Positions 14,693 through 61,024 of a stretch of 64,000 nucleotides of DNA are shown here, one piece after another (position 1 is the first letter of the stretch; each line of letters starts with the position of its first letter). The stretch comes from an uncultured archaeon (GTDB lineage Archaea; Asgardarchaeota; Lokiarchaeia; Sigyniarchaeales; SOKP01). The stretch covers positions 9,543-73,542 of the forward strand of contig CAZGJX010000005.1 in NCBI GenBank assembly GCA_964525635.1, written 5' to 3'. The position numbers were made by a program, and so were the translations under genes. The notes under the pieces are model-generated. The model did not search any database. It was not told the DNA's origin and worked only from the letters and a program-made list of their open reading frames with translations.

Positions 14693-16222
14693 TCAATTTA
14701 TTTTAAGGGAAGGAATGTCTTTTAAAGATTGAGGAATTTTTTTTATTTTATTTCTTGCTATAGTTAATTCTTTTAATTTTAGTAAATTTCCGAAGGAATC
14801 TGGGAGATCTTCTATACTGTTATCTCTTAGACCTAAGAATTCTAAATTTTTAATCTCTCCAATTGATTCTGGTATTTTTCTTAATAATTTATTTTCTTGT
14901 AAGCTGAGACGCTTTAAATTTTTCAATTTACCTATATTAGAAGGAATCTTATTGATTTTATTATATCCTAAAAATAATTGCTCTAGATTTATTAAATCTA
15001 ATATAAATAATGGAAATATAGAAAGGTTATTATGACTTAAAGAAAGAAAATTTAAAGAAGTTAAATTTAAGAGATTTGGTAAGACTTCTAATTGATTATC
15101 ATCTAGATGTAATTCTTTTAGATTGGGGAGGTTATTTATTGACTGAGGAATCTTGTTTAACTTATTCCTACTTAAATTGAGAATTTCGAGGGATTTTAAA
15201 TTTCCGATGGTCTCAGGAATGTGGCTTATTTCGCATAAACTTAAATCGAGGTATTTTAACTGTGTTAAGTCTCCAAGAGATTTAGGAATTGAAACTTGAT
15301 ACTTACCAGAAAAATGGCTTAATTTTGCATTCTGAAGGTGCACATCTAAAACCTGCAATAACTTACATTTATTTATCCATTCAGGCACTTTAATAAGCTC
15401 ATTCTCACTAGCATCAAGCTCTTTAAGACGGAAATGAAGTATTTCTTTAGGTAATTCAGTAAGATATAATTTGCTCAAATCAAGCTTTCCTTTATTTACC
15501 ATTTTCGCGAGGACATCGATTTTCTCAGCTTTGGACAAGCGGAAAAATAGCTTCATTAACCAGTGTCTAGTTAGATATAAGTCTTTATGTCTGAGTAACG
15601 GTTTTAAGTCGAACAGATGAAGGATAACAGGTCTATGGAGTTCAGGACTTAAAAGGTCCAGAGCTCCTTCATGTAGCAATACAGCAATCATATCTATGTC
15701 GTTTCCCTCAAAAAAGCGTAGTAGAAGGGTGTCTTTTTGTTCTTGAGTGAGGTAGTTAAGAAATTTGCGCACTAAAAGATATTTAACAACATTTTTGCTT
15801 CTACTTTCGAACCTTCTGACAATCTCTTGCGGGAATTTAATTTTGGCCTTAGGGTCGCCGACGTCAACGAGTTTTCTCAGGAGTGGGAAGGCGAGATTGC
15901 TGTGGAGGAGGCGAGTATCGTAATCATGTTCGGCCCACACTTGGAGATTTGAGCAGTGAGCCCAGAATTCAACTTGAGGGGGTATTTTAACGGTGGTCTC
16001 TTTTGGTCGTTCTAGAATTGAGTTGAGGTGCTCCTTCGCATCGTCGATGGAGTCAATTTTTTCGAATTCTTCAATCTTATTGGCGGGTATCGACAAAAGC
16101 AGGTATTTACACTGTAGAAACCTTTCATTATTTACAAATATGACTGTTTTTCCATCTCTGAGCTTTAAGGTGATAAATTCATTTATTTTAAATTCTGGCG
16201 AGGGTGGAATATATACAGTCAT
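14693..16222 (-). CDS. Leucine-rich repeat protein with a Lokiarchaeia-type N-terminal domain
   Basis: N-terminal FKINEFITLKL...QCKYLLL...EFWAHCSNLQVW...LLHSNLAFPLLRKL...GDP, followed by about 11 LxxLxLxxNxLxxLP repeats. Confidence 0.9.
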   Translation of the reverse strand: MTVYIPPSPEFKINEFITLKLRDGKTVIFVNNERFLQCKYLLLSIPANKIEEFEKIDSIDDAKEHLNSILERPKETTVKIPPQVEFWAHCSNLQVWAEHDYDTRLLHSNLAFPLLRKLVDVGDPKAKIKFPQEIVRRFESRSKNVVKYLLVRKFLNYLTQEQKDTLLLRFFEGNDIDMIAVLLHEGALDLLSPELHRPVILHLFDLKPLLRHKDLYLTRHWLMKLFFRLSKAEKIDVLAKMVNKGKLDLSKLYLTELPKEILHFRLKELDASENELIKVPEWINKCKLLQVLDVHLQNAKLSHFSGKYQVSIPKSLGDLTQLKYLDLSLCEISHIPETIGNLKSLEILNLSRNKLNKIPQSINNLPNLKELHLDDNQLEVLPNLLNLTSLNFLSLSHNNLSIFPLFILDLINLEQLFLGYNKINKIPSNIGKLKNLKRLSLQENKLLRKIPESIGEIKNLEFLGLRDNSIEDLPDSFGNLLKLKELTIARNKIKKIPQSLKDIPSLKIN

Positions 16223-16278
16223 TTCTATGATTACTATAAGTAATTTTCTTATTTAAATTATTGGAGAGTGAGGAATTT

Positions 16279-19200
16279 TTAAATTCTGAATATGGAATTC
16301 CATGCTTCAGCAAACTCCTTTAGTAATGGTAGGGTGTACTCGATATTCCCATAAAATTGAGGATAAGCCACATGAATTTTTCTCAACTCTCTCAAGCTTT
16401 TTTGAAGGTCGCTAATTAGATCATCGTATCCTCCAATATATTCAATTCCCCGTGGAGTAGGTCCTTCATTACCGCCAAATATTTCCGTCTTTTTAAACTG
16501 TCCACCGTAATAATCGATAAGGGTTATGAACAGATCCTGTTCCTTATGTGGGACTATTGCGAAAGAATCTCCTTGAAGGAATAAGCTCATAATCAAGCTA
16601 AGATCAAAATCTTTAATAGTCAATTTGTTTGCATCGACTTGATTTTCTTGTATTGTAAAGACCATATGGGGATCCGCATCGAAACGGCTATTCCAATAGT
16701 ATTTATCAAGGGTCCATCCAGAATCGCCGCTAAGTTTCCGAATTTGCTTATATGTTTTTTTATATTGCTCAATAATGTTGGTTAGCTTATTTGTATAACT
16801 TTTATCCTGAATAAATCCATCTTTACTTTTCTTTAAAGGCACTAAATATACAGTTCCATGGGTGATAGCAGCTTTAGCGATTAATGTTTGGAATGCTTTA
16901 ACAAAATTGATTATTTCTTCTTTTTGATAAGTTAATCGTGTATTGATGTTTTTATCTTGTTTTCCGATGGTTATTTTAATAAAGCTTGAGAGAAATTGAC
17001 CATCATCATAAAATAGGCTTGCTTCATGTCTGAAATGCTCATCTGTTAGATGGAGTACGAAGATATCATCCAACTGATTTGGATCAGGATCTAAGCTAAA
17101 GTCAAGAGGTGCTGGAAATCCTTTCTTATAAAGCAGAGCATTTTTAAATAGTTTTCTTATCTCGGGTCTTTTCCTAATATTTAAGATATAATCAAGGCGA
17201 TCTCGAACTATTGCTTCATAATATTTTTGATTATCTTTGAAGAATTTCTCTTCATTATCCTCTTTATTAAATTTTTTACCTACCTGACTGTTCCAAATCG
17301 TCATAAGTTTATCCAGTATGTTCGCCATAGCGCTGCACTGTATATCTTCTATTGAGGTGTCTGGACTCCACTCTTTATATTGAGCTGCTATTGTCTCTAT
17401 TAAATAGTCTGAATATTGATTGGCAGTAATTGGGTTGAATTCTCTATTCTTTTCTTCGGACGTCTCTAATAATTTATTATTTATGTCGGCAATTGAAGGA
17501 TTGGAGGAATCCCAAGTACTCGAATCTAGAATATTCATTGCGTCTATATATTTAGTATTTCCTGAGATTTCTATAGCGATTTTAACGCCTGCTATTACTG
17601 AACCTAAAAGATAATCTATATAATCATCCTTATATTTTGAATCTACATATTCCATGAGAAAGGAGAGCCTTTCTAGATTTTTTAAAATTAAATGATTTTT
17701 TCCTAAATTTTGATCTAAAATTTTTCTTTGAAGGGAGAGGGGGATAAGCACGCCATCCTTAAACATTGCGCTTCCTTCAAGCATTTTCAAATAGGTAATT
17801 CTTCCAAGTATTGCTACAACTAATCTATGTAACTTCTGAGCTTTTCCAAGAGTCTCATCAGTCCATTCATCTGTAAAACGATTGTTTTCTTCAAAGACAA
17901 AATTGTCTATTAATTTATCCATTTCTTTAAACTCAGGAGAGTCCTTTTTATTTTCTTTATACTTCTTTAATGTATCCCACATAATGGCCGTCCATTTTTT
18001 AACATCTTGCTTCCCATCAAACTTAAGATTCTCGATTAGGCGTTCTTTTCCTTTAAAATCATTGAAAAACATATTATCTGAGAGTGTATTGTAAATCTCT
18101 TCATAATTCTGAGGATCTAAGTTGTATGCTACTGTTTTTATTATATGATCCAAACGTTGTTCAACAATGTCCTTCTTTATATTATTCCAATCAGCATATT
18201 GTTGGTTTGTTATGTCTGTTGCGAAAATCTTTATAGTAGTTGATGTATAGTGGTATATATATCTAAATATTCCATTTCGGAATGCGATTGATTCTTGGTT
18301 GCTTTTCATATTTTTTGGAAAATTCTTATTTACATATTTTACGATAGAATCTGATTTTCTTGGGAGACTTTTATATTTTTCGAACAACCATGTCCTGTAA
18401 TCAAATTTGTGACCTTGCCATAAATACGTAGAAGTTAATTGGAATTCGAGGGAAATTGCGTTTTTAGTATTTCCAAATCCGCTATGTAAGAAAAGAATCG
18501 GTTGTATAGCACCCTCCATTCCCTCTTTATTCTTCTCTTTTTTCCATAGATTTTTATCTTCAAACCAATTTAGCCCTCTATCTTTGACATCTTTATCAAT
18601 AATTAGCCATCTGCTTTCTAATACATTGGAGTTCTCATCAGTGACCATGAACATCTGCGATATTTGCAGGGTATCTTTCTCGTCATAATAAGCATAACCT
18701 AAATGCCAGTCTGAAATATCTTGTCCTTTTGCTGGAGTATATTGACCTTTTTCATTGATTTCCATTCTTATAAATCGATTTATGATATCTTTTCCTTCTA
18801 GCTTAAAAGCCCATGCATAGGAACCATCCATCATTCCTGTTGTATCATCTATTTTAATATCATTTTTTCTATTAGTCACACTATTTTCTTTAATTTCTAA
18901 AGGTATTTCATCATATGGTAATTTTCTATTAGATGGATAATAAAATCCTAGCATATTATTAGAGGTAATTCCATATCGAGTTGTCTTAGTTTCTTTATCA
19001 AAATATTCTCCATAATAATCACTCATAGAATTATCAGTAGCGAGAATTTCAAGAAGATATTTTTTTAATTCCTTTTTTTCATTCCTAAAATCTTTAATCA
19101 GAGGCTTTCCTACTTGTTTTTCTTGTATTTCATTAAAGGTTGTTTCTATTTCTTGCCAATTTTTATCTTCCTCAATGAATTGTTTTAGTTTTAAGCGATA

Positions 19201-22200
19201 ATTATTTTTGCTGTTGTCGTCATTAGATTTAATCTCTTCCCAATCTTTAGTAATTTCATGAATTGTCTCAAAAGCCACTTGTTCAATGAAGAGGGATGGG
19301 ATTGCTTTAAAAATTCTTTCACTAATAAACGATACTTCTTTACGACCTCCTAACTCCCCTGGAACTTTCATAAGAAAAAGTTTATTACCTATTACTTTAC
19401 CAAATCCATCTAATGTTGTCAGACGCTCACCAGTCTCAGAATCAACAAAATCTTCGTCACCAAAGAAGGCAGCATTGGCTATAACTCTAGCAGTAGTCTC
19501 TTTATTTATTTTTGTCTTATAAAGAGTAGAATAAAATATCATCCTGAATATATCATTAATAATTCCCGTTTCACTGATATCTTTCCCTCCCCGACCATAT
19601 AATCCTTTCCTAACCATTTTGGATGGAGATCCAATAATGATATACTTAGCTTCCTTACCATCTCCTATGTCTATAATATGTAATCCTTTCATATCAACTA
19701 TTTTAATACCCTTTATTACGAATGGTTTACTTTCTGAAAGAATTTGTCTTCCTTCAAGAGTAAAAGATTCTTCTTGAGTATCAAGAATAATAGGATTAAT
19801 AATTGTATATCTTTTACTTAAAATTTCTTTTATATCATCGATATCTGAGTTATCCAGATCAAAAGTACGAGCAAGTTCATCAAAAATTTCTTTCGGTAGG
19901 AGGAGTGACGTTGCTAAAGTTTCAAGGTTAGCACCTTCAACACCTATATATTGTCCTAAATCGACAAATTTATAAGCTTCTTTTAGTGTCTTGTAATCTT
20001 CAACCATTAATATTCCTGGTGGTAGGAATATTGATCCAATGAATGCCTGATAAAGTAAAAGATTGGGATCAAGCTTTTTATTTTCCGCATAAATATTTCC
20101 TAAATTATAATTTTCTTCGAGTAAACAAGAGAGGATTCTACTTAACCTGTAATATATTTCTCCTTGATTCTCTTTGGAGTTAGGATCGAGCTCATAAGTA
20201 GGAATTCCATCTTCAAAAGGTATACTATATAATTGAATAAATAACAATTTCATAATATTTTTTCTTAATGCTATTTCAGCAGTTGTTTTTCCTGTTCTTG
20301 TATCATATTCCTTGGTAATTACATCAAAAATATACTGTGCCAATGCTGTATAAAATTTATTTTCATTTTTCTTTTCATTTTCATTATCTGACTCAGCAAG
20401 ACCTACATATAAAGTCTCAAGCACCGTTCTAACTCTTTTTTTAACATTTTCATAATTAAAGTCCTGAGTACCTTCAATGATTTTGTCTGCAAGTTGACCC
20501 AATTTGAGAGCAAATTCACCAAAATTCTCATAATAATTCTTTTCGTCATCTTTATGATATTTTTTTCTTGCTTTTTCAATAGAATCACTAAGTTCTTTAG
20601 TATTGAAGATCCTCTCAAGATTTCTAGGATTTCCCTTTGTAGGATCACTGGCTACAAATCCCATGAATCTATCCAAGAAATACTCTATTGCTTCTATTTC
20701 TTCTATATTTTTCCCAAGGGGCTCAAGAGCTTCCCTTGTCTCCCTCTCTAGTTTTGTGCGAATAGATATCCCAGTTCCTATAGTCTCTTCTATATTCAAT
20801 ATATCTACACTTATACAACCCTCAATGTTCGCAAATCCGAAATAAGTCGCAATTTTAGAAAGTGTTGTAGTCTTATCGATAAATTTAGTATTTCCAAAAG
20901 AATCAGTGAATTCTAAATTAAGATCAATCTTCACTCCTTCTGCTTCAATTTGTATTTGTGCCAATGATAACTTATCCCTGAGTTTTTGAATTACAACTGC
21001 CTTTAATTCATTAATGGTATATTCTCCTTTTACAGGAATTTTTAACATTAAATCTTCTATGTATATCTCCTGATATTCACCAGATTCCTCATCAATATCG
21101 GCTTCCCTATTCACTTCTATAACACTATTTTTTCCCTCTACCTTCTGTGAACTATCAATAGATTCACTAATTTCCTTAATTTGTTTAATATTTTCTTGAT
21201 TCATTTCTAATTTTTCCTTGATTGCCTGAGCTTTTAATAATTCTTCTATATTAGAAAGGGGGCTTTCTTTTTTGGACCTACCTTTCTCAGGCATGCCTTC
21301 CCTATCAATAGCTAAGACTGTACTAGAAGTTGCAGAATAGGCGGCAATTTTATTATTTACGTTATTAAAAACTCTTACTTGTTGCTGTTCATCAGTCTCG
21401 GGTACAACAGGAATTGTAGGCAGTCTTTTCAAATCCTTAACAACACTATCATCAATTAATACTCTAGTATTAAGCATTAAACCTGGCTTCTTAAGACTTG
21501 AAATAACGTCTTTAAATCTCATTCTGTTATTAAGGTGAATCTGGTATGTGTGCAATAATTTCATATCAACATTATCCAGAAATTTCGAGTAGATATATTC
21601 TAAGGCAAGAGTCGAGCCTAAAGCTGAGAGACTCGGTATAAATAGGGTTAGCCCACTTGCAATAAAGAGAGCTGAAAGTTTCTTAATTGTTGGAACTGTC
21701 GCTTCCTTGCCGAAAATCTGTAGTTCGGAAATCATAGCTAAAATTGCTTCCCGTTTCTGTAGCATAACCTGTTCTTCTGATATACCGCTTGATTGCAGTA
21801 CTACATTATTTAACCAATTTTGAAAGTCCTTATTAGATTTCATTGCAACAAAAATCTGAGCATTATAGGAAAGGGATTGCTGTGAGATTTGTGCTCCTGT
21901 ACCGCTGGTAAGGAATCCAAAGAATTTGGTCTCTCTTGCACTTGTCGCAAATGTGCTTAACCAGAAGCCAAGCTCATCAGACCAGCCCATGGTTCTCGCT
22001 ATACTCCCAACGACAGTCTCAATAACTCCATCTATGATGACTTCTTGCATAACTTCTGAGACTGTGCCTACAGCGGTTCTCACCGCCATCTGAGTTAATA
22101 GATTTTTTATAATTTGCTGTGATGTTACTCTCTGAATTTGAGATGCCATTATTGAATTCAAGGCCTGCATCGCCACTTGTTTTCCTGCCATTGCCGCGGC

Positions 22201-25200
22201 CTCTGTGTATGCCTGTTTTGCAACTCCGGTTAAGTATGAGCCCAAAATGATTAGCGGAGTGGATATAATAGTCGATTGTAAGGTGAGATCCTTTGTGTAT
22301 TTCATTTCAGCGACCATTCCCGCTGACTGTGTTGCAAATGAATACTGATTAAAATAGTCCATAACCATATGAGAAGTTATCTGAGTTAAGGCAAGTTTTG
22401 CTGTCTCTTCTGTGGTGTCAGGGATTATCTTTTCGAATTCAATTTGAATTTTATAATAATATGTACCTGATGTGTATGCGTTAAGTGTGATTAATTCATT
22501 AATAGGTGTCATGAAATATAGGTCTCCAGAATCTAATACATAATCAGAATCAGAAATCTCAAGAGGATCACCTATTTGTGTGCTATCTTTATATAAATAC
22601 AATAAAATCTGTGATATAGGATATTCAAATCCGCCGATTTTAGAGGCTAATGGAATTTTGTCTTTATAATCCATAGTAATTTCCTCTTTTGAGAGCTCCT
22701 GAGTAGTAATTCCCCTAGTATTTTCTATTTGGGGAAGGGCAACCTCTATTGTAAGATATCCTGTCGTTAAATCATATTTCCTCAATTGGTCATAATGATC
22801 TTGGTCGACCACCAAAGGTTTATAAAGAGCTTCATTAAATCCTCCTTCTATATCTGAGAAAATATAGGTTGGAGCACCATCGATACAGGTTGGGATCACC
22901 GAACTAAGTGTTCCATTCGTCTCCCTAGAGATGGCATAGCTCACATATCCAAGCGTATTTTCCTGATATTGTGTATATAAATCTGTAGAACCTCCACTTT
23001 GGTGGTACCTATAGAATGGGATGTCATTATATGTATAGAGCTCACTTGAGACTAAAAAGAAATCTAAATTCTTATGATCAAAAGGTAATTGCTCGTCTGG
23101 GGGAGTAAAATCTATAAGCCCTCCTGTTAGTAGAAAACTGGCAAGATTAGAATATACACTTACAGCCCTATCTCCATTTGGAGGGGACGCTATAACATGG
23201 GCAGTATAATCATTTCCAGGATTGCCCCCCACCACTCTTGTATAATAAGCCCCTGTATGCCCTGTCAGCGCTGCTGGAAGGCTCTCACCCCAGAAATCGT
23301 CCCAGTAGTCTTTCTCATTAAGAGATTTGGGACTTCTTCTATTTACATTCTCAGGATAGAAAGTGTCTGCGGTCTGAACTGAGGTCATTTCATGCATTTT
23401 CAAATCCATAAAATATTTAGTAAGCAGGGAATACACAGCAAAATAGGCAGCATGAGCTAAACTTGTTGCTGTGCCATATGATAAAATAGTAATTAATGAG
23501 CTTGCAGCAGAAGCGATTAACGTCGACAGTACCTGCTCTCCTACATCTCCTAAAAATTGAGCATCATATTCTTTCCAGATTCTACTATATTCTCGCTTCC
23601 TGGCTTCATAGAATAATTGAGGATATTTCGAGATTTGACTGCTCCTATTAACCAATTTTCTCACTTCAAAGATATGGTCTTTTGCAACCAGTCCATCGTC
23701 TATATTTACTGGAAAAAGTAATCTCTCATTATCTAATCTTTCATATTTATATCTCCAGTTCGAGCCATATATTTTATGACCTTCCTTTGAAAGAATGTCG
23801 GTATAATCATCTCTAAGAGTCTCATATGGGCTTTCTACCTGTTTCCTAATATACGGACAGAAGCTATATTGCGTGGGAGTCCCGTAAATATATCCAACTG
23901 AAATTACGTTATACTTGCCATCACAGTTACTATCATTTTCAACAATATAGACAACATCATATAAGCCATCACTGTTGGAGTCTACATAAAAGTAGCTACC
24001 GGATGTCTTGGCGCCCCAACTATTTTTAAATGAGTCCTTGTCAGAGGTGTAATATACCCGTCCATCCGGAGGGGTTATAAACACTCCCGTAATAGCAAGT
24101 TCAACATCTCCCACAGCATTCGAACCTTTATTGTAGTCGTAATAGGTGCTAAATCTATTGGGAAGGACAAGGGTAATTTCTGTCTCATAGAAATTGACGA
24201 TCTCATCACTTCCATCCTCATTTAAAATTTGAATTGAATCGTATTTTATTGGGATTGCATCTTTTCCATAATCTTGCCAAGTCTCTTGTGTATAACCATT
24301 TATAGTTATAGGGGTATAAATAGCATTTGCTACGTTAAGAGAGACTTCGGATTCGACACCTAATTCAAGATCCCTTATTATACGCTTTCCTTCTCTCGCT
24401 AAATTAAAAGACATTCCAATTTGTCCATCATCAAAGAGATCGCGATAACTTCTAATTGAGATTACTTCTCCTTTCTCAAATTCCTGAACTGTAATAACCT
24501 CTGACTTCACATCTTCCTTAAGAGATTCTACTCCCAATTGAGTATATTTTCTATAGGTTGCCTGTAAAGTAGATTCTAATCCAGGATAAAGATAGGTAAA
24601 TCCATCTGGGTAATCAAAATCATAGTTATCTAATTTTTCTTCAGTTAAGATTTCATTAAATATTGCATCTTCTCCACCTCCTCCGCACAATCGATCCCAA
24701 GAGGCAACCGTATAATCTACGATGTAGTTTTTCACATTCCTTGGCTTACCAGCAATTATTGCTCTCTCTTCCTTATAATTCTTTACGTGAGATATTGTAG
24801 TCTCGCTTTCATAGGTTATTTTCTTATCTGCATATGAATCGCGGTCCTCATCAACAGAAATCATATAATATTTTGAGGTAATTTCTCCGAAAATCTGAGT
24901 AGAATCCTGCATAAACTTTTGAGCATAATAATCCACATCAGGGAGAAAGATTCTGGCTACTGTCTCGAGCAAGGCAAGAGTGTTAAATATTCCGAATCCA
25001 AGCCCTAAGATTGTGGCTAAATTAAATTCATAGTCAGCAAATAAGCTATCGTCGATATCGAACCATTGCGTTCTCATTACCTTTCCTTGCGAAATATTGA
25101 AGAAAGAAGATGTAAGTGTTGAGTCTTGAATAATGGTATGCCAAATAATACTATTTTCTGTAGCATTGAGAAATCCGTATTTTGTGATATCAAATACGCC

Positions 25201-28200
25201 ATCTCTATCAATATCGATAATTTGTTTATAATCTGGATTTTGATCCATATCTAAATCGCATTCCAAAATTATATTATATGGATCGTAATAGATTTGAAAA
25301 TCTTCAAATAAGTTTGATGTATCAAATAACTCTGCTGTAAGATCTGACTCTGCCCGTGAATAATTAAGAGCTGTAAATGAGGTATAATCAGAAACAATTG
25401 CATCATGATCTTGAGAAAAAAGGATATATCCATCATTATATGCATATTCAAAAGAGATGGATAAGTACTCATAGAAAGAATCTTCTATATTGGAAAGGTA
25501 ATCACTTCTAAATTGTTCTGATAATGTTAATAGCGTAAAACTTGATACAGGTCCTGTTGTATAATTAAAACTTATAGTAATATAATCATAATCAAAAAGA
25601 GGCGTACCTCCTAAAGTTATAATCGTGAATGTATTATCAATCTTATCTAATGTAAAATAATAATTGCTATAGTCGTTTCTAATTTCTGACCTAGTAAGGT
25701 TTGGAAAGACGCCAACTACATTATAAAGTTCAAAATTTGTGAAATTAGTAGCAAATGGCTGCTCAACATTAAATTTATGAATGTAAGTATCGGAAGACCT
25801 ATCATATACAGTAAACGATTCTTGATAGAATTGTTCTATATTATAATCATAAGAATCACTATTATCAATTACTTCTCCTAAAAACATTTCATATCTTGGA
25901 GTTAATGGAAATCCACTCTGACTATAATATATTTCAAGGGAGTTAGCATCTATATTTTCGTAATTAAGAGCAATTGGAACTTTCCATGAAGTGTTTGTAC
26001 AGTAATTAACGTAAAACGTACTGTTAGGATCAACCATGTGGGGTAATGCAATTTCAGATCCTAGAAAATCTTGATATCTATCAAATTCATCATTCCAAGT
26101 AAGCGATCTATTAGCATCGTGATAAATTAGCTGGTCATTTACTCCCAACGCTCCCGCTGAATAATAAATATAATTATCATCAATAATATGAATATAATTT
26201 AACCATATATCTTGAGTATCGCTATCACCAAATAATAATGGTTCATTTTCAAACGCAAGAGTATAGGAATCATCAGTTGGATTATCACCTGCTGTGAATT
26301 CCTCTGTCTCTGTAAATCTCCAGATTCTTGTATCAAAAGAACTACTTCCAGAAGTACCTTCAATGATTTCGACAATTTCTATTTGATCAATTGTTATTTC
26401 ATATGAAAGATGAGGTGCCGAAATTAGTAAATGAGAAAATTCAACCATGCTGTCAATAGCATGTGCCTCAAATTCGGTAAGATTTAATTCAAATCTGACT
26501 TCTTTAAATGAGTTGGTGATCTCTGTATCAAATGGCGTTATTGGAAGTTCAATGTGATAATAATAATCGTCGGTAAACTGCTCATAAGCAGTGCTGCTTG
26601 ATGCGTTCACAAGCATTATCTCAGCTTCATAGTTAAGATCGTCATAAAGTGCATGTTTCTTGTTGAAATAGGTCTTCTCTATTCCGATAGAGACAGAGTG
26701 CTCCAAGGGAGTCTCATATCGTATGATAAATACATCCCCATCGGCAAATTCCAAATGATTGGTTGAATTGAAAGGATCAATAAATATGCTCGGAATTTCT
26801 AGAATATATACATCTTGCCCTAAGACATCTTTTTCAACCCTATATACATAGTTGATGTCCTCTGGTAGGGCAATATAGTTCAGCTCAATATCCCATAAAT
26901 AGACAGATTCCACCTGCCCCTCATTTAAGGGAGCTGAGAGCTCAAATTCCATATATGAGACTCCTTCACGCTCTAAAAGATCCTCTGTGGACCATACTGC
27001 ATAGTCTATAGTCGATACTTTTGTATTAGAAGGATGATACGGTCCTTGGTCTGTAAATTGGGGAATAATAGATATTTTCTGAAGGGTATTTACACTAATA
27101 GGTAAATTAACCTCAATATTGGAATCCCACATCACAAGATCTTCAATTGAGATTTCCTGTGTATATCCCTCAATAATACCTGTAGTATCATTTAATATAA
27201 TAATAATTGAGTCTAATGCATTATAATTCTCAATTAGAGCATTGAAAACAAGGGAGGAGTATTCTCCTCGATGAATGCTCTCAAGAAGATCAGGGCTGAA
27301 CCATGATAATTCACCTGCTAAATCAAATACAAGAGTCTCACCCCTCTCTAGATGAGCTCCTATCTGAGTCGCATAACAGCTTACATTATTGTAAGAGCTC
27401 TCACCATAGTCGGCAAACCAATGTGCTCCAAGATTAGGTATCGTATCAAGAGGCTCACCATCCATAACAGTCCAATAATTGAGATCAAGTGGTCTCTCAT
27501 TATCCAATGGTGAGTAAGAAAATTTATATGAATTAAATGCTTGATCGTTAAGGGATGGAATGAATGAAATCCAGAACTCGTATATGTTATTAATTGCAAC
27601 AATATCATTGCCATCGTCTAGCAATGTTATTGTATGAGAGGTTGTATCTATTGTATAATGGCTTTCATCAAGAATTTGTAAAAGTCCTTTCTCGTTATAG
27701 TAATGGATTCTAACAGAGGGAGTTCCATCTACCTCCTCATATACATCTATAGATTCATTTAATCCTATTGGAATATAATCATATGTATATTGAGGGTTAT
27801 TATAATTAAATTCGTGCTTTTCATCATAATAATTCCTCTCATTTAGACGATAACTTAAATATAACATATAAGTACTGTCAAGTGATAATCCGTATTCAAA
27901 CGGTGTAATGATTGAGCCTCCTGATAGTTTTCTGTATCTCTCTCTATAGTTAATCAATGGATTGTCTGAAACATCTGTAGCAGCATCATCGAGCAGTTGT
28001 TCGAAGGAATGAGACCAAGGATAAATAACTGTTAAGAAATGCTTTCTATCAAGGAGAGTTGGAGCTTGTTTGTAATAATATTGGATAGTGATCTGAGAGC
28101 CAGGAGTAATATTTGTCTCATTAAGGATGATGTTATTATCTACTATGCCAACTACATATTTATCAAATTCAGCATCAATATTTGAAGTATAAGGACCATT

Positions 28201-49200: not shown

Positions 49201-52200
49201 TAGTGCTCCTTGTGATTCAATTCCACCATAGGGTGAATTATATAGAGAAAAGTTAATCATCTGGTTTTGAACAGATATTTCTTGTTCGAAAAAATTATAT
49301 ATACCACTTGATGAATGAATATTATCATAATACATTGAGGAGAAATTATAGGTGTCACCTAAGATCGGATCGCTTATCCATACACTATCGATATAATTAC
49401 CTTCATACTTACCATCAAATTCATCTTCAGCTAAATCGAGTCGAGAATATTCTTTCCCTTCTAGAGTTTCTGAGAGTATCCCAGAGTCATAGGAATCTCC
49501 ATAATATATGAGGTTATTCTGGAGTTCTGACATTGAATAATATTCTTCTCCCCAATATTGATTATTCCAACCGATTCTTGTGGAGACTGGAATATCTAAT
49601 AAATAGCCACTTCCAGAGATAACCGATTGTCTCCTATAAGTATTACAATCTTCTAGTAAATGCAGACTATAATGATTAGACGTACCATAATTGTTTATCC
49701 AAGCGAGATCTAATTCATTTTCCCCGTAGAACTGAGCTGATGCTGATGTGTCTGTCCGATCAGGTCTTCCCTGAGCCCTATTAAAAGACGGATCTATACT
49801 CGTTATTTCCTCACTGTAATAACTTAAAAATGAATAATCAACTTTTATATTTTCAAGATTACTCCATATTATACCTAAATATGGATTTTTTAGGTCTAAG
49901 TAGATTGAAAATTTATCTGCTAATGTATAAAAGTCAGGAGATAAATAATACCATTTATTATTTTCCATAAATGAAATTTTATTAATCTTATCAATTTGAT
50001 AAGGTCCAAGCGTTAATTTATAACCGGTTCTAAATTGTTCCAACTCTTGACGTGTCTTAATAGTTGATGTGAAGCAAATTGGACTTGAAATTGTGTATTT
50101 ATCCTTTAACGTTTCAATATTAATTTCAAATAATCCTGTGTGTGATGCCACAATCAACTTCTCTGAATCTTCTTCACTAAGTGCTAATAGATCAAGAATC
50201 TGGAACTTTTCTTCTTCAAAACCAGAGATATCTACTTTTATCCAATCATTCGCTTCTTGACTATATTTTACCGAGTAGACAGTATCCATCTTACCAAGTA
50301 ATTGCCTTGATAATCCAAGTAGTATTCTTTTTTGACTCTTTTCGATTACTGATATTTTACCCAAGATAGAGTTAACAATTACATTTTGAGGATTTAGATT
50401 ATTATAATCAAAGTGTATTAGTTGAGAATAATAGCTTCCTTCTATTAATCCTCCTATTAATATAGATTTATCTTGCTCAGATATTAATGACTCAACAATT
50501 TTTATAGAACTTGGAATGAACCCAATAGGTGCTTGTTGCCGTACTTTTTTAATTGCATTGAAGCCGTCATCAATTTGGTATTTACAAAATGATTGTTTTC
50601 CCGTCTCGTCTTCTTGAACCGTAATTAATACTGTCTTTCCTATATTTCCATCATAATATAGATCAAACAATAAATTCTTATATTCGCTATTAGAAGTTAT
50701 ATTTAAAAATGAATTCCAATTATCATTATAAAATGAAAAGACATTCATTTGATCGGGTGAAAGAATAATTAGTTCAGCGATCCCATCTCTATTAATATCA
50801 AATAATTTGAAAATTTGATTGTATGAAGAATTAAAAAGACCTTCAGCACTAAGAACATCATCTTTTATCCATCCATTTGTCTCGTTAAACTTATAGATAA
50901 TTAGATCAACATAGAGATCATTTTTGACCAAAATAATTGGCTGAAATTCACCATTAGGATTAAACACGCCCCAACTACCCCATAAATTATTTGAGGTTAT
51001 AGGAGTCACCTGCACGGGAATATAGGAATAATTAAATTCCCTAATTGAATTATAAAATTCTGGATCTTTGTTGAAATCCCAAGTTATAGTATAAGAGCCT
51101 GCGTCTATAATCGTTGGCTCTGTTGTTATTGGAATCCATTTGTTAGTAAGGACATTATAGTATTGCGAACATACATCCCAGAATTCTTCAGAATCAAAGT
51201 AATTACTTATTTGTCCAGCTATGATTTGTGAATTAATTATCTCAATTTCATCAAATTCAAACACATCTCCAAAGACAAGATTTGTAATTAATTCTACCTG
51301 AGCAAAATCATATAATACTATATTAGATATTTCAGTAAGATAATTTCCTGCTTTATCTAATATGAGTACTTTTATATAATTAAAATTGGGAATTTGCTCA
51401 AGTAAATCTCCATCCCAGTAATAATTCCACTGATCAATATCACCTGAATAATATGCTCTCCCTATATTTTCCCAAGAATTGCCATCAATAGAACAATAAA
51501 GAAGAATTCTATTAATATCACTCTGTCCTAATGGATTCTTATCTACTAATGAACTTTTTATTGTAATTGTACTATCAGAATAGGTTTCTGAACCAAAAAG
51601 TACAATTCCTGCGTTAGTTGAGTTTGTACCTAAATTCCATTGAAAAAGAGATCCTGCTTGTTTTAATATGGCAGGATCATATATCCCTTTAAATTTCTGT
51701 GTTACTATTGTGTTTCCTAATTGAGCCCCTCCAGTTGCAAGCTCCATTCCATCTGTTATTTCAAACCATAGTAAAAAAGATTCACCTTCCGTAATTGTTG
51801 GCAGGTAATTTCTAATATCGAAAGACATCAACCTCCATTCCCTACTGTCTGAATCGAAAGTTAAAGGAATTTTATTTGAAGTTGCTTCATAAAAAGTGGC
51901 ATAAATCGAGTCTGAGTTTTTAGATGATAATAAATGGCGTGATGATTCTCCAATTTTCAGTATTAATTTTTCACAATCTAAAATAACTTCAAAATCATTA
52001 ATTATATATCCTCCAATTGTTATAGAGGTTATTGATTTAATTAAAGAAATATTATAATTAACTGGATCTGAAAACCCAATAATTTCATATTCAAGCTTTC
52101 CATAATCAAGTTCACCTGAAATTACGAGATTGTGTGATGCAAGGGTTTTTGTTAGATTTAGACGAACACTTTCAACACCATATTGATAGTAAAGGGGCGT

Positions 52201-54444: not shown

Positions 54445-54456
54445 GGAAAGTATATG

Positions 54457-57400
54457 TCATTCAAACGTATCTCTCGGAGCTACTCCAATAAAACTGTTTT
54501 GATTAATACGATCCTCATGATTTATATAATTAAATTGAATTGATGTATTGAAATGATTAATTGAAAAAGGTTTGTTAAAAAAGCTATATACTTCATTTTG
54601 AACTTTATCAACACCCCGCACTATAAAATAATAATTACCATCTGGGAGTGTTCTACTATCAATCACATATGAGTAATAATCGCGATCCTCATAATAAGAA
54701 TTAATGAGATGCCAGGAGGCTATGTCTGGATTTTCTAATTCTGGATAAGATTCTGACAAGTAAAACTCTAGTGAAGTAATCTCTTTCCCCAGATTATAGG
54801 ACTGAAAATTGATATACCCATCAACTATTTCATTGTTGATAATTGCCGCCCAACTTCCATCAACATCCTTAAGTACAGAAGAATTTACAAGTAATTCTAG
54901 CCCGATATAATCATCAATTTCCAAATTCATTAGTGCTGTATTAAAAATAGCTATTTCATCCATTTTTCCTGCATAATAACTATTTGAGGTTAATTCGCCT
55001 CCAAATATTAGGGCTCCTCCGCTCGTAATTGTATTATTAGCTACTAACCATGGTTCTGCCATCCCCCCTTCTGCTGCATAATACCACATATCTTTAATAT
55101 ATACGTCAACATCGCTGTTATTAAATCGAAGAATAACAAGTTGCCATTCATTTTCTTTAATTGATCCTATATCTCCATACTGCGCTGTTGCAGCTATATC
55201 TGTAGTGTTTAAGAACGCTTGGACATAACCTGTCTCAGAGATGCCCAACTCAAACATATTTCTCTTCGATAGAAATACATTTTTAATCCCATTATTGCTT
55301 ACAGCATCAGAACTTAGATTTGTAGGATAGATCCAAGATAAAATAGTGAATTCTGAGCTATTATAGAGTTCAGAATCTAAAATCTCACCAAAATCAATAT
55401 AATCACTCTCACCATCAAATTCAACTCCTCCTCCATGTTTTCCAATTGTCCAAAATGTATCACCTGCTAATAATCCTTCATACTCATTTATTGAATCATA
55501 TGTTTGCTGACCGTAACTCTCCAAAAATTCCGCTTTAAAAATTAAATTGTCAATATAAGTGTGGGAAATATCTGGAATTGTGCGAAATGATTTTAATAAT
55601 TGAGAAAATGTAAAAGTCCATTCGTCAGGGATAAGATCTCCATTATGATCAATAAAAAATCTTTCCTCTTCAGATACTCCACTTAACCCTGCGTATTCCT
55701 CATGTAGCAGACGTTTATAGAGGTCATCTCCATCATAAGCTATTTTTGAAAGAGCATTCGTTTCAAAATAGCCGTATACTTTATGGATGTAAGCAAGATG
55801 ACCATATTTATCCGTACTTACAGTATTGATTAATTTATATCTATTATTTACTTCTAGATATAATTTAATACCATCTAACTGGACGCCCTTTCCTCTGGAA
55901 TCCACTATTGTGCAGTTCCACATAACAGTCCAAGAGCTATCTTCATTTTCAAAGGTAATTATAGCTCCTGCATCAAGACCATTTCGATTATAAAACTCCG
56001 ATGGCCTTACTGATAACTGATCTCTTTCAAGGGTGATTTGATATGTTACAACTTGAGAAGAATGCCATGAGAACCATTGATATTTTTTAAGGTAACCTTT
56101 TAGTTCATAATCCCCGGGTAAAAGATTGTAGTTATCAAAGAAGAGATCATTATAGAGCTTTATTTCCTCTTTAGGACCGTTTACAATACCAGATTTAAGG
56201 TTATATGAGAATTGCAGTTCTCTTCCTGCTTTATTACTGATATTTTGAGGAGTTAGGGTAAATAATAACTGCGAAGATTGACTTAATGCTAAATCAGTCT
56301 CTGTTCTTGCAATTAGTCTATCATTTATAGATAAGGGTTCTAACTCACTTAGATATCCATACTCGAGATCATCATAATTTTCCGAGCCATATCGAGCGAA
56401 TTCTATTTTTGGTTGGTCTATATTTACAGTAAAAGGAATTGATGCCAGCCACGGCACAATCATTAAAAAGATTAATATTAAGTACGCATATGCTTGAAGC
56501 TTTCCATCTAAGCGCCCTTGTAATCTTTCCCTTATACTCTTACTTTTTCTTTTTGCTCTAATATGGCATTTTTTGGTAAATATAACTCCTGGAATAAGTA
56601 AGAGGAGAAGAAAAATTATAGTATAGACCGGAAAGATAAAAAAGATGACAATTGCCCCTAAGCAAAGAGAAAAAGAGGTGATCAATAAATAATTCGTCTT
56701 TTTTATATGGTATTTGTGTGGAAATATAAAATATAAATAATTACTAATAAAATTCCTTTTTCTATATAAGGTTTCTGTAATTATAATTGTAATTAGAAAT
56801 ATAGCAATAAAAGAAAAATAATCCTGTACTTGAACTAGAAAATATAAAATATTTCCTAGGATTATATCAAAAGCAATTAATATAATTGACATTATCTTGA
56901 ATTTCTTTATAGAACTAATCCTTTCTATTAAATATAGATTTAAAATAACTACAGCAATAAACATGATCAATATTGCTCTTGAGTTATTCCCAATTTGCCC
57001 TAACTGAGAAAAATAAAAGGAAATACATATTACACTCGAAGTTATTAAAAGAATAACTGAGGTGAGGAGTAAATTTTTATCTTTTACCTTATTTCCTTTT
57101 TGATTTTTCAAGTAAATGAAATTAGCGCATAAAAATATTGTCGTAAAAATAGATAATGCCCAAAGGATGCCAAGAAAGAGAAAAAATAACCCCAGACTAA
57201 ATTCTATTATACTGGAAATATAGAGGAATTTTATACATTTATTGCTTAACCTTTTATTATTTCTATATAGGTATAGACATATAGAAAAATAGAGAAACTC
57301 AATAGAGAACCATAAAAATCTATACTCCATATTTAAACTTAATAAAGTGGATATTTGCTTTGTGAGATCAATCTGTTCACTTTTGAAAGGTATAGCAGAT

Positions 57401-59061
57401 AATACGGAGATCGCAGAAAATATCAAGACAAAGAATATGAATAAAGATGCTACTAATGGGAATAGTATAGATATAATATTGTATGCTGTCGTATTTGATT
57501 TAGATCCCTTAAATATCGATATAATTTTGGCTTTTTTCTTTTTACAAGTGTCTCTAATTGTTAGGCACTTTGTCTTTAAGGAAGATTTTATGTTATCTTT
57601 TAATTCTATGATAGTAAAATATATTCTTTTTAGGAAATTTTTTGAATCAATTTTAAATACTTTAAAGTTAAAATCTTTCATATGTTGATTTATTCTTTCT
57701 ATTTTTTGAATAAAGAAAAAATCGACTATACTATAAAGCAGAAGGGATAAAGTGTTCTCTTTTCTTTCTTTTTTTAAAAAAAATATTATATTTTGATTTG
57801 AAGAAAATGATTTAGGTTTTTTTGAACACCTTTTCCTTATAAAATAATTGAATCTCTCTAAAAAGCGTTTATATATTTCCTTAACATACCATTTAAAAAA
57901 CTGAAAATACAGGCTGATATTTAAGATTTTATTGGATAACGCATCATTTTTTCTTGTTTTCTTAAAAAAGAATATTATATTTTTATTTGAAGAAAATGGT
58001 CTGAATTTTTTTGAAAACTTTATTTTTATAAAAAAATTGAATTCCTCTAAAAAGCGCTTGTATGCCTCCTTGATATACCATTTAAAGAACTGAAAATACA
58101 GGTTGATATTTAAGATTTTATTATGGAAAAAGGTCTTGAATTTTTCTAGATATTGGTTAATTTTTTTTACATAATAACTTAAAAAAGAATAATAAAAGCT
58201 CAAAATAAGAAGAAAAAAGAGATTTCTTGTTCCTTGATAAAAAAATAATATTTTGTTATGCGATGAAAGGTGATGAAAGGTGATATTTTCGATATAATTA
58301 TGCTTAAAGCTTGCAAATTTCTTTTGTATCTTTTGTGGAGTGGATTTTATCTTTCTTTTTGTCTTGAAAATTGAATTTTTTCTATAAGATTTATCATAAA
58401 TAGCTTTAATTTCCCGAAGAACTTTTTCAAATGATTTTCTCTCTTTTTTAGGAGTCTTGGTTAGTAGTTCAAAATATATTTTAATTCTTTTGCAGAAATC
58501 ATATAAATTAACTTTTCTTGAATACTTGAGGAATTTTCTTATATTTTTTCCATTCTCAATATTATAGAGTAAATTATCAAATATTACCCTATATTCCTCA
58601 TCAGAACAGACACTATGATCTATTGTATTGTAGTGCTCCTTAATATATGCAAGAGAGTGGTTATATAATGAATTTAAAAGATTTAGTTCTTTATTCCCGA
58701 TCTTCATGAACCTCTTTAATTGGATATAAAACAAAGAAATAAAGATAACATCATTAATCTCATTTTTATTAAGCTCTCTGAAATTGAGGTGAGATCTTAC
58801 AAATTGAGATAAAATAGGTGAATAATATTGCTTTATATACTCTACTCTCTCGCTTTCTTTCTGTCTTAGTACTCTTTCCTTTTGTCTTCTCTCTTCTTCT
58901 ATTCTTTTCTGATAAATTGTCTTTTTTAAAGCAATTTGAGGATTAGGTTTAGAATTGAGTAGTCTGAGAGGAGTATAAATATCTTTATAAAAGATTATAT
59001 TTGGTATTGTACTATTTATTCTTTTTTTTTTTATTTTATCGAGGATAGTCTCCATATACAA
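54457..59061 (-). CDS. N-terminal part of the giant protein: basic head, about 11 TM helices, extracellular LamG domain
   Basis: K/F-rich first 520 aa; hydrophobic helices at about 57480-56430; LamG (GKHGGGVEFDGESDYI...FTILSWI...GKMDEIAIFN) at about 55550-54910. It ends at a TGA that is followed in frame by the next ORF. The start is TTG 59061 or ATG 59055. Confidence 0.9.
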   Translation of the reverse strand: MYMETILDKIKKKRINSTIPNIIFYKDIYTPLRLLNSKPNPQIALKKTIYQKRIEEERRQKERVLRQKESERVEYIKQYYSPILSQFVRSHLNFRELNKNEINDVIFISLFYIQLKRFMKIGNKELNLLNSLYNHSLAYIKEHYNTIDHSVCSDEEYRVIFDNLLYNIENGKNIRKFLKYSRKVNLYDFCKRIKIYFELLTKTPKKERKSFEKVLREIKAIYDKSYRKNSIFKTKRKIKSTPQKIQKKFASFKHNYIENITFHHLSSHNKILFFYQGTRNLFFLLILSFYYSFLSYYVKKINQYLEKFKTFFHNKILNINLYFQFFKWYIKEAYKRFLEEFNFFIKIKFSKKFRPFSSNKNIIFFFKKTRKNDALSNKILNISLYFQFFKWYVKEIYKRFLERFNYFIRKRCSKKPKSFSSNQNIIFFLKKERKENTLSLLLYSIVDFFFIQKIERINQHMKDFNFKVFKIDSKNFLKRIYFTIIELKDNIKSSLKTKCLTIRDTCKKKKAKIISIFKGSKSNTTAYNIISILFPLVASLFIFFVLIFSAISVLSAIPFKSEQIDLTKQISTLLSLNMEYRFLWFSIEFLYFSICLYLYRNNKRLSNKCIKFLYISSIIEFSLGLFFLFLGILWALSIFTTIFLCANFIYLKNQKGNKVKDKNLLLTSVILLITSSVICISFYFSQLGQIGNNSRAILIMFIAVVILNLYLIERISSIKKFKIMSIILIAFDIILGNILYFLVQVQDYFSFIAIFLITIIITETLYRKRNFISNYLYFIFPHKYHIKKTNYLLITSFSLCLGAIVIFFIFPVYTIIFLLLLLIPGVIFTKKCHIRAKRKSKSIRERLQGRLDGKLQAYAYLILIFLMIVPWLASIPFTVNIDQPKIEFARYGSENYDDLEYGYLSELEPLSINDRLIARTETDLALSQSSQLLFTLTPQNISNKAGRELQFSYNLKSGIVNGPKEEIKLYNDLFFDNYNLLPGDYELKGYLKKYQWFSWHSSQVVTYQITLERDQLSVRPSEFYNRNGLDAGAIITFENEDSSWTVMWNCTIVDSRGKGVQLDGIKLYLEVNNRYKLINTVSTDKYGHLAYIHKVYGYFETNALSKIAYDGDDLYKRLLHEEYAGLSGVSEEERFFIDHNGDLIPDEWTFTFSQLLKSFRTIPDISHTYIDNLIFKAEFLESYGQQTYDSINEYEGLLAGDTFWTIGKHGGGVEFDGESDYIDFGEILDSELYNSSEFTILSWIYPTNLSSDAVSNNGIKNVFLSKRNMFELGISETGYVQAFLNTTDIAATAQYGDIGSIKENEWQLVILRFNNSDVDVYIKDMWYYAAEGGMAEPWLVANNTITSGGALIFGGELTSNSYYAGKMDEIAIFNTALMNLEIDDYIGLELLVNSSVLKDVDGSWAAIINNEIVDGYINFQSYNLGKEITSLEFYLSESYPELENPDIASWHLINSYYEDRDYYSYVIDSRTLPDGNYYFIVRGVDKVQNEVYSFFNKPFSINHFNTSIQFNYINHEDRINQNSFIGVAPRDTFE
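57770..58122 (-). repeat. Two diverged tandem copies of a 189-bp (63-aa) coding repeat
   Basis: NKILNI.LYFQFFKWY.KE.YKRFLE.FN.FI....SKK...FSSN.NIIFF occurs twice; matching DNA starts at 57782 and 57971. Confidence 0.9.
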
Positions 59062-59636
59062 ACACTTTTTTTTACTATTTTATTTTAATTTTTTTACTTA
59101 AAGTTGTTATAATCTATTTTTATTTAAACAAAAAATTTAGATACGATTTTCTTAATAAATGAATTAATCTCTATAGATGATGAGGAATATGCGAGATGAC
59201 TTATTTTAGTTTTTTTTTGAAAAGAAATTGAGCAATATTTTTTGAAAAATCTTTTTCTTAATTTTTTTAGATCATCTAAAATCGGTCGAAAATTTTTCCT
59301 CAAAAGTGAACTGTGGTGTATCATATTGAATCTAATACGAATTGGAGGATAGCTAAATTATTTTACTCCAATACTAATTTTTGGCTAAATTTGGTATATT
59401 GTATCTAATTATTTTAAAGAGTATTTATACTTTTACTTATTTCAATTACATCACGGGTGAATTAATTGTTCCTAATGTCGAGATTTACTTCTGATTAGCT
59501 TTATCTTACACAGAATTCTAAAGATAAAAATTATAATAATTATTAGCGCTTTAAAAGAATATTAAAGGATTGATCTGAAATATGGTAATTTATTTTTATT
59601 TATGCCCTTAATTCATTTTTTTCTTTTATATAGAAG

Positions 59637-59648
59637 TAACTATAGTTA
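59637..59648. promoter_or_regulatory. 12-bp perfect palindrome TAACTATAGTTA, candidate operator
   Basis: Lies between a TATA-like TTTTATATA (59624-59632) and the wHTH ATG at 59680. Confidence 0.35.
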
Positions 59649-59679
59649 TTCTGTAGTGCAATAAAAATAAAAATACACG

Positions 59680-60030
59680 ATGAAGTTCGAAAATTTTGAG
59701 CATCAACTATATCGATCATTTGATATTATTAAATGCCTAGTATATATTTGCAAGCATGAATGCAATTTATCAGATTTAGAGGGCAAATTCCCAGGCAGAA
59801 AAAACACATTATTGAGATATATAAGAAATCTGGAAGATACTAAGCATATAATAAAGATATTTCCTAATTCAATTAAAAAAATAACAAAAAAGACAGAATA
59901 TACTATATACGCAACAGAAAAATTAAAGAATTGGGTACACATAAATATTAATACCATAGATATGAGAATTAAGTCCATAAAGAAGACCATGGAAGAGAAG
60001 ATTGAAAAAAAGCCTGAGACAGAAAGTTAG
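59680..60030 (+). CDS. Winged helix-turn-helix protein (MarR/ArsR-like), divergent from the giant gene
   Basis: CNLSDL.......NTLLRYIRNLEDTKHIIK...YTIYATEK pattern. Confidence 0.7.
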   Translation: MKFENFEHQLYRSFDIIKCLVYICKHECNLSDLEGKFPGRKNTLLRYIRNLEDTKHIIKIFPNSIKKITKKTEYTIYATEKLKNWVHININTIDMRIKSIKKTMEEKIEKKPETES

Positions 60031-60082: not shown

Positions 60083-61024
60083 TTATCTGTGAATATCCTT
60101 CTTCTTAAAAAAGATAAATCCTATAACCAATAGCAGCACTGCGATGGAAAGTAATAAGATTAAAGATCCTAAAGGAGCCCAATAACTAGTGTCTTCATAA
60201 CCTATAACAACTTGGTCCTCAACAATAGATCTTATTAATCCATTCACTTCAAAGAAAACATAATTCTCAATCTGAATAAGTTTAGAAAGATAATAGAAAA
60301 TATTAATAAAATGATATCCAAGATCAAAATTATATATTTGATATTTTTCATAGAAGGTTGTCCTTCCGCCCATAGAAAAGGCAATACCGATCCTAACCAT
60401 GAAAAGCACTAAAAACAAAAAGATCACTACTATAAGAGGTATTGTAATCACATTTATAGGCTTTCTCAATAAGCAAGACATTGCCATAGTAAGACATTCG
60501 AAGAATATTAACACTATTAAAGAATAAATAACGTTTATAAAGAAAAAGGGGATAATATCGTAAAACGGATATCTAATATAGGCAATTAGACATATAACAA
60601 AGAATGATGTGATACTAAGAATAACACCGAATGTAAATACAGCAAGAAATTTACTCAGAACGACTTTACTTCGAGTGATGGATTTGCTTAGCAATATTTC
60701 CATAGTCCCCTCTTTAACTTCACGTGAAATAAGAGGTGCTGTCAATAATGAAATAATTATTGGAAATACAATAGATAAGTTATATACAAGCACTACATAA
60801 CCAAGCCCCATTGATTCAAAAAGAGGTGTTGTTTTGTTGACAGCTGGTATATAAATCCCTAATATTAAGATAAGGGGAACAAATATCATTGCGAAAAGAG
60901 AGCCTAAAAATTTGGGTAAGGTGAATATATCTGTAAACATAGTTTTTCTAAATAATTCTAAAGTCGGACATGGTCTTTGAAAAATATTTAGTTCCTTTTC
61001 ACTTTTTATTTTACTTATCGACAT
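60083..61024 (-). CDS. ABC-2 type transporter permease
   Basis: About 6 TM helices, ISREVKEGTMEILLSKSITRSKVVLSKF motif, C-terminal FKKKDI. Confidence 0.9.
   Translation of the reverse strand: MSISKIKSEKELNIFQRPCPTLELFRKTMFTDIFTLPKFLGSLFAMIFVPLILILGIYIPAVNKTTPLFESMGLGYVVLVYNLSIVFPIIISLLTAPLISREVKEGTMEILLSKSITRSKVVLSKFLAVFTFGVILSITSFFVICLIAYIRYPFYDIIPFFFINVIYSLIVLIFFECLTMAMSCLLRKPINVITIPLIVVIFLFLVLFMVRIGIAFSMGGRTTFYEKYQIYNFDLGYHFINIFYYLSKLIQIENYVFFEVNGLIRSIVEDQVVIGYEDTSYWAPLGSLILLLSIAVLLLVIGFIFFKKKDIHR

Follow-up and report, generated by a model that had tools for sequence, protein, structure and literature searches.

The window analysed here, a stretch of 64,000 nucleotides (positions 9,543 to 73,542 of contig CAZGJX010000005.1, assembly GCA_964525635.1), comes from an uncultured archaeon of the Sigyniarchaeales (Lokiarchaeia). 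Its minus strand carries a giant gene (16279..59055) of 14,258 codons that contains one TGA in this assembly. Seven full-length homologues, which measure 11,373-20,615 amino acids (aa), are collinear with it. As a first-pass annotation of the window had already noted, a gene for a protein with leucine-rich repeats (LRR) follows 56 bp downstream on the same strand (14693..16222): It encodes a 509-aa candidate immunity protein with a Loki-type N-terminal domain and Pfam LRR matches, which has no hydrophobic segment and would be a cytoplasmic partner. The giant gene belongs to a family in which a constant N-terminal body is joined to exchangeable C-terminal domains at sharp breakpoints, and in which the adjacent cognate gene changes with the tip.

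Architecture of the giant protein

The reading frame had initially been described as a single frame from 59061 to 16279. It does comprise 14,260 codons, but it is not open, as an in-frame TGA had been missed. With the start at the ATG at 59055, the uninterrupted chain has 14,258 aa; halomucin, for comparison, has about 9,200 aa. All parts described in the following are encoded on the minus strand. The chain begins with a basic head (aa 3-526; 57484..59055) of about 520 aa, 21% of which are lysine or arginine; it is probably cytoplasmic and not conserved, and its coding region includes a 189-nt tandem duplication (57745-58122) with copies that are 82% identical. The head is followed by a multi-pass membrane anchor (aa 527-880; 56422..57483) with weak homology in all seven full-length relatives. 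Hydropathy scans gave eight strong hydrophobic segments in the anchor, and the approximately 11 helices proposed earlier are a plausible upper number.

The long acidic stalk (aa 881-11340; 25042..56421) is presumably extracellular and is non-repetitive at the DNA level. It had been regarded as a sequon-rich LamG stalk: The acidic character and the LamG domains were found, but the sequons (N-X-S/T) occur at about chance level (1.07 of expected). The four LamG domains are located at aa 1216-1382 (54916..55416; Pfam PF13385, E 3.5e-11), aa 5815-5969 (41155..41619; PF13385), aa 6277-6458 (39688..40233) and aa 7498-7655 (36097..36570; PF13385, E 1.5e-15), and LamG was the sole family matched in a Pfam search across the entire giant protein. 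Five loops of the DxDxDG type are present, as predicted, three of them close to the end of the stalk. Such loops also occur in the conserved pre-tail region (aa 11341-12573; 21343..25041), together with the expected late hydrophobic helices. There are five of these, at aa 11347, 11844, 12263, 12337 and 12464 (span 11,347-12,482), and they are moderately hydrophobic, with values of 1.4-1.8 as compared to 1.9-3.0 for the anchor. This region is a candidate translocation module, and it harbours the family-defining core (aa 12219-12400; 21862..22407) that is represented by our search profile A1.

The tail that follows the late helices is rich in lysine and glutamate and cytoplasm-like in composition, in agreement with the earlier description. 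It corresponds to an exchangeable cargo of about 1,690 aa (16279..21342) that belongs to the long class of tails and has no recognised family. A terminal alpha/beta domain (about aa 14040-14260; 16282..16944) is probably remotely common to the long-class tails, as suggested by alignment A7, by an AlphaFold2 model and, weakly, by profile-profile comparison. The ubiquitin-like segment that had been suspected here found no support in Pfam at this locus. In a paralogue on host contig C91 (L002:7600-7900), a ThiS-like ubiquitin-fold segment ending in Gly-Gly, with a weak Pfam match (E 0.002), is located directly past the breakpoint, and this Gly-Gly end is a possible processing site; in a simple listing of motifs, a conserved cleavage site of the Asp-Pro or Gly-Gly type was not conspicuous.

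Exchange of tails and co-variation with the adjacent gene

A census with profile A1 detected the family in 52 of the 135 genomes of the host's family and in just three more among 400 genomes of the phylum, and the named matches were mostly from Promethearchaeota. Two matches (L050 and L053) are in assemblies labelled as bacterial, a Chlamydiales-related and an Actinomycetes metagenome-assembled genome; these are probably misbinned Asgard contigs. A head, the multi-pass anchor and a collinear body are common to all seven full-length homologues, with a body identity of 24-52% in blocks of 500 aa as far as about aa 12,500. Beyond this point, a single patch of 116 aa is the only similarity among them. 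The 20,615-aa member, encoded in one open frame (L080 with L132-L134; G062:C13, about 86,450-148,300), is to our knowledge among the longest archaeal proteins, and it has a different, possibly papain-like end. At the locus L082 (G105:C23:44600-62000), two giant genes are arranged convergently a few genes apart, each with its own LRR partner.

The transition from conserved to unrelated sequence is abrupt and was seen in many pairs of loci. The window gene is about 53% identical to three other loci up to aa 12,568-12,573, where these closest bodies stop matching, and has no match to them past this point. Similarly, two paralogues of the host genome (C85 and C147) share 82% identity over 345 aa of the body and are then unrelated, and the same holds true for the pairs L065/L067 (83% over 355 aa) and L115/L118 (84% over 290 aa), whose bodies are followed by unlike tails. 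Among 77 non-redundant complete 3' ends, clustering on the last 300 aa gave 35 tip clusters, with tail lengths of 708-2,130 aa as counted from the core.

The downstream gene follows the tail. An adjacent gene is present within 250 bp of the tail end in 76 of the 77 loci (median gap 61 bp), and 75 of these 76 partners have no hydrophobic segments. A partner family is shared by 52% of the pairs of loci with the same tip as compared to 15% of the pairs with different tips; moreover, the similarity of partners correlates with that of the tips (partial r 0.33), but no such correlation exists with the body (partial r 0.01). The window tail is part of the long class (1,830-2,130 aa), whose partners mostly belong to the family of the window LRR protein and are usually encoded convergently. 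The closest relatives of the window LRR protein (77% and 67% identity over the first 245 aa) are both encoded behind homologous tips; all others reach at most 54%. In one further genome, the pair of tip and LRR gene recurs with identical spacing. Thus, the comparison of homologues proposed in the first-pass annotation supports the interpretation given there: Stalk and helices are conserved, the tail is not conserved like the stalk, and it varies together with the downstream gene to which it is linked.

Sequon avoidance in the tails

For the 77 tails, observed sequon counts were compared with expectation, and heads, partners and the soluble and secreted proteome served as controls. Downstream of the core, the tails contain four sequons as compared to 536 expected (0.01), and two of the four are within five residues of the C-terminus. 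In the 350 aa that begin with the core, three sequons are present family-wide versus 179 expected. The window tail has none versus 12.1 expected, and the giant protein is sequon-free from aa 12,050 to its end. The depletion is specific: Reversed and shifted motifs occur in the tails at 0.85-1.0 of expectation, and Asn-Pro-Ser/Thr, a motif that does not permit glycosylation, is 2.6-fold over-represented. The controls were close to or above expectation (partners, 0.92; heads, 1.20; soluble proteins, 0.90; secreted proteins, 1.25), and the four most sequon-depleted stretches of the host proteome all belong to members of the giant family. An AglB-like gene is present in the host genome.

A sequence that stays in the cytoplasm would not be expected to avoid sequons; judging from this pattern and from the anchor, the tail therefore appears to be exported. 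Most likely, it passes the glycosylation machinery outside the cell and must stay unmodified. This pattern strongly argues against a receptor with a cytoplasmic tail and is in line with a cargo that has to pass through a membrane. In the host genome, two secreted glycoside-hydrolase-like proteins (C112:6347-10087 and C97:5594-9205), by inspection chitinase-like and cellulase-like with a dockerin, have sequon-free stretches of about 950-1,100 aa. Because these two secreted enzymes are sequon-free as well, the loss of sequons indicates export without glycosylation and is not proof of translocation. The sequon signal provides a simple and general means to discriminate exported, unglycosylated cargo from cytoplasmic domains in archaeal genomes.

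Nature of the cargo

The activity of several sibling tips can be proposed from homology. Nine tips are alignable and have common histidine and terminal Thr-Ala-Tyr-Pro motifs; a profile built from them detects the CdiA toxin 7M5F chain C, with a match along its length (E 4.3e-8), and, weakly, PBECR1. Other sibling tips match phage endonuclease families (PHROGs, best E 3.7e-25), and LAGLIDADG and further homing-endonuclease matches as well as GIY-YIG end motifs were detected among them. An archaeal signal peptidase I domain is present in four to five tail ends (E 4e-14). It is located between body and tip in L006 (on C147), L046 and L104, and it is a candidate release protease. No match to an intein or HINT domain was found in the giant protein or in the tail ends.

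The window tail is isolated: It has six relatives among 1.84 billion proteins, and homologue searches with the window tip gained one genome. For the final 740 aa, AlphaFold2 yielded a model of low quality (mean pLDDT 42), and fold searches with it returned only generic helices. In contrast, the 250-aa tip, aligned with other long-class tips, was predicted to form a compact alpha/beta unit (pLDDT 69, pTM 0.73). This model was unmatched in the PDB (VIA-align, best Z 3.7), by Foldseek and in the Atlas (TM at most 0.34), which is not proof of a new fold, and an ESM Atlas feature search with the tip gave no usable match. Profile-profile links between the long-class tips are weak, with the exception of one pair of groups. 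Taken together, about 35 types of cargo can be catalogued in the family, the majority with no assigned activity.

A segregating nonsense allele

The in-frame TGA (54457..54459, minus strand) is codon 1535. It divides the frame into an open reading frame of 1,532 aa and one of 12,721 aa that restarts at the next ATG at 54444 and lacks both anchor and signal. We compared this site in contigs of three salt-marsh runs: Codon 1535 is TGA in the contigs of runs X1 and X3, and TGG in the X2 contig, which differs from the window by a single base across the 4 kb compared, the very base that makes the TGG. The TGG allele is seen in one X2 contig with a depth of 4.3, in which the site is 141 nt from the contig end. 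Two paralogues of the same genome align across the codon without a gap and have asparagine or glutamate at this position. The TGA is thus neither a selenocysteine codon, as no conserved UGA or cysteine was found and the sibling sample has TGG, nor part of an archaeal bulge-helix-bulge mRNA intron, i. e. an insertion of about 30 nt whose removal would eliminate the stop. An assembly error is unlikely because the TGA occurs in the contigs of two runs. It is a segregating point nonsense allele of the 14,258-aa gene. Due to the in-frame stop, the allele in this assembly is probably disarmed and would yield a 1,532-aa anchored stub, with the partner gene intact. That a stop allele and an intact allele both occur in salt-marsh samples points to loss of the weapon with retention of the partner gene.

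Orphan cassettes and decayed copies

Three 5' ends with an anchor are present in the host genome, besides several copies that are truncated at the 5' end and about ten tip fragments that lack an anchor. Most of these fragments adjoin the same type of partner in the same orientation as their full-length parent, and tandem partner arrays are included. Orphan tip-plus-partner cassettes were found on C147 (two), C109, C22, C23, C15, C70, C43, C151 and others; such a cassette anatomy has been described for bacterial polymorphic toxins (PMC3482391). On the contig C147 (L006:2100-8504), a CdiA-like tip is accompanied by three partners of 150 aa in tandem, an orphan cassette of 580 aa and the start of a second orphan. 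Decay seems to be common in the giant-gene family: Copies that are 5'-truncated, frameshifted or stop-bearing are present in the host genome (C4:6846, C9:60477, C91:1503, C63:7417-7420 and C96:13641-13657) and elsewhere (L078, L091, L092 and L095).

Proposed function and alternative explanations

We think it likely that the locus represents a contact-dependent polymorphic-toxin system of Lokiarchaeia that has its own delivery body. The delivery of an effector by the giant protein had been proposed in the first-pass annotation. The present data support a polymorphic toxin far better than a plain adhesin, since tail and partner vary together, sibling tips are homologous to CdiA and orphan cassettes exist; no activity, however, can be assigned to the window tail. 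From comparative sequence evidence, we infer toxicity, target binding, translocation, cleavage, the export topology and immunity by the LRR protein. In the mechanism that we propose, the intact allele would produce one chain that is inserted into the membrane by its N-terminal helices, with the head inside. The remainder would be exported as a long, probably glycosylated stalk, whose LamG domains may bind a neighbouring cell. The conserved pre-tail helices would then enter the membrane of the target and pass the C-terminal cargo, which is unglycosylated, to the other side, perhaps after cleavage. In the cytoplasm of the target, the cargo would become active, for many siblings as a nuclease. 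The LRR protein encoded next to it, itself cytoplasmic, would be specific for the cargo and neutralise it in the producer and its kin. Tip and partner might be swapped jointly by recombination in the conserved pre-tail region, with the anchor-less cassettes as the supply. It is tempting to go one step further and to see in this system a single-chain weapon of 10,000-20,000 residues with an undescribed helical module, a long-class toxin of new fold and an expanded Loki LRR family that provides a repertoire of matching antidotes or receptors in the cytoplasm; this extended view is tentative, and we would not yet bet on it.

Several observations weigh against the toxin interpretation. A nuclease-like family or motif can be assigned to only about a quarter of the 77 tips, and the cargo of the window locus has neither a family match nor a recognisable catalytic motif. 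The LRR-type partners of the long class are convergent in 13 of 17 cases, unlike the usual co-transcribed order of toxin and immunity genes, and about half of the 23 members of the LRR family in the host genome are located away from any tip. The loci are related, so that the permutation p-values overstate the association between tip and partner. Moreover, two ordinary secreted enzymes likewise have long sequon-free stretches, the copy of the giant gene studied here is interrupted, and several paralogues are truncated.

A first alternative is a non-lethal recognition of self and non-self, at least in the long class: A variable identity domain would be delivered or displayed by the same apparatus and read by the cognate LRR protein. 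The long-class tails have no recognised catalytic domain, they are large for translocated toxins, and they pair mostly with convergent LRR genes; moreover, this role has been proposed for VARTIG, a hypervariable archaeal surface module (PMC8416519). On the other hand, the same body carries CdiA-homologous and endonuclease tips, and even a long tail (L058) ends in a CdiA-like domain that is accompanied by the usual partner family of this domain. We therefore regard an identity signal as improbable, yet as the alternative most worth keeping in mind. Less probable still is a stalk for adhesion or foraging whose variable tips act extracellularly, e. g. on extracellular nucleic acid, and never enter another cell. 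The LamG domains of the stalk and the avoidance of sequons by other secreted enzymes of the host would suit such a stalk, but it leaves unexplained why cytoplasmic partners co-vary with the tip, why tandem partner arrays and anchor-less cassettes exist, and why a hydrophobic module is conserved and free of sequons.

That the protein is a giant receptor, with late helices that truly span the producer membrane and a tail that serves for signalling or as an effector domain in the cytoplasm, where the LRR protein would be its adaptor, is very unlikely in our opinion, even though the tail composition is cytoplasm-like and the partner is cytoplasmic: Cytoplasmic sequences of the host have 0.90-1.20 of the expected sequons, as opposed to 0.01 in the tails with their surplus of Asn-Pro-Ser/Thr, the late helices are merely moderately hydrophobic as compared to the anchor, and the tips are interchangeable and often nuclease-like. 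Finally, in view of the GIY-YIG-like, LAGLIDADG and homing-endonuclease matches, a surface-protein gene might have been invaded at its 3' end by selfish endonuclease modules, which would now form the tails. We give hardly any credence to this idea, as RNase-type CdiA homologues are also among the tips, cognate partners are present, and intein or HINT matches are missing from the giant protein and the tail ends. In addition, sequons are avoided in every tail class, and the tails have therefore been selected as part of an exported chain.

Relation to known systems

In its logic, the proposed toxin system resembles bacterial polymorphic toxins (PMC3482391), which share the constant body, the variable C-terminal cargo, the adjacent cognate gene, orphan cassettes, strings of partner genes and a peptidase ahead of some tips, and for which LRR immunity proteins (Imm-LRR) and cassette exchange have been described. 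In contrast to these bacterial toxins, the Asgard system is archaeal and consists of a single chain of 9,000-20,600 aa that is anchored at its N-terminus by multiple membrane passes; RHS, filamentous-haemagglutinin, LXG and HINT domains were not found in the giant protein. Moreover, LRR proteins are the main partner class in the Asgard family but a minor class in bacteria, many of the Asgard partners are convergent, and the cargo is under selection against N-glycosylation. The system has the long surface stalk, the pre-toxin region and the exchangeable tip in common with CdiA/CdiI, and nine of its tips are homologous to the 7M5F toxin domain; it differs in that there is no outer membrane, and the window tip is not of the CdiA-like class. 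Neither a TPS domain nor FHA repeats nor a CdiB gene, the features of the type Vb CdiA/CdiB system, were found in the whole-protein Pfam search and among the flanking genes, and there was neither an RHS match in Pfam nor any RHS/YD-like internal repeat as in Rhs/Tc-type proteins. The system thus seems to work like CdiA or Rhs, but in the absence of TPS, FHA and RHS domains and of CdiB it is a member of neither.

Classical polymorphic toxins are reported to be rare in archaea (PMC3482391). A haloarchaeal contractile injection system (PMC11566945) also provides contact-dependent antagonism with toxin-immunity pairs; this system is a multi-protein contractile machine, whereas the Asgard system is a single anchored giant chain. 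The VARTIG proteins of Thermococcales (PMC8416519) are archaeal surface proteins with a hypervariable C-terminus and variable downstream genes as well. Their variable part is an Ig domain, whereas that of the Asgard family has 700-2,100 aa, is often enzymatic and has cytoplasmic partners. Very large archaeal genes are not new: Among archaea, Asgard archaea are reported to have the largest number of genes for more than 10,000 aa (bioRxiv 10.1101/2023.11.21.568195), and the Otus and Ephialtes giants of aloposons (PMC8813620) are also very large. Aloposons have tandem genes of 3,000-6,000 aa at tRNA sites, and swappable tips or partners are not given in the consulted sections of either report. 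The window has a single giant gene, and no tRNA was found in it. We found no paper that describes the architecture of the giant family, with the coverage of subscription journals being thin. What our work adds is the tail census, the sequon evidence, the homology to CdiA toxins, the nonsense allele and the long class together with the LRR proteins that accompany it.

Antagonism is poorly documented in archaea, and the family suggests a concrete mechanism for contact, competition and the discrimination of neighbours among Asgard archaea. For some of the numerous LRR and giant genes of Loki genomes, a function can be proposed on this basis. If the extended view with its repertoire of LRR antidotes or receptors held true, an LRR-based recognition system would exist in the closest prokaryotic relatives of eukaryotes.

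Flanking genes

A TrmB-like gene, a small probable regulator, ABC-2 genes and IS66 flank the locus in addition to the LRR gene. A winged helix-turn-helix (HTH) regulator had been proposed to be divergent upstream of the giant gene. A divergent 116-aa gene is indeed present (59680..60030, plus strand), and it is a probable regulator that is HTH-like by inspection, but it has no HTH match in Pfam. A paralogue (40% identical) occupies the same divergent position at the giant gene of C21. A scan for promoters and terminators at the junction between the giant and the LRR gene gave chance-level results only. Beyond the probable regulator, an ABC-2 transporter pair is encoded at 60083-62009, with close paralogues that adjoin giant-gene copies on C9 and C91 and in the genome G014. 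It is followed by a gene for an IS66-family transposase (62110-63795), which is GC-rich as compared to the rest and present as a single copy in the assembly.

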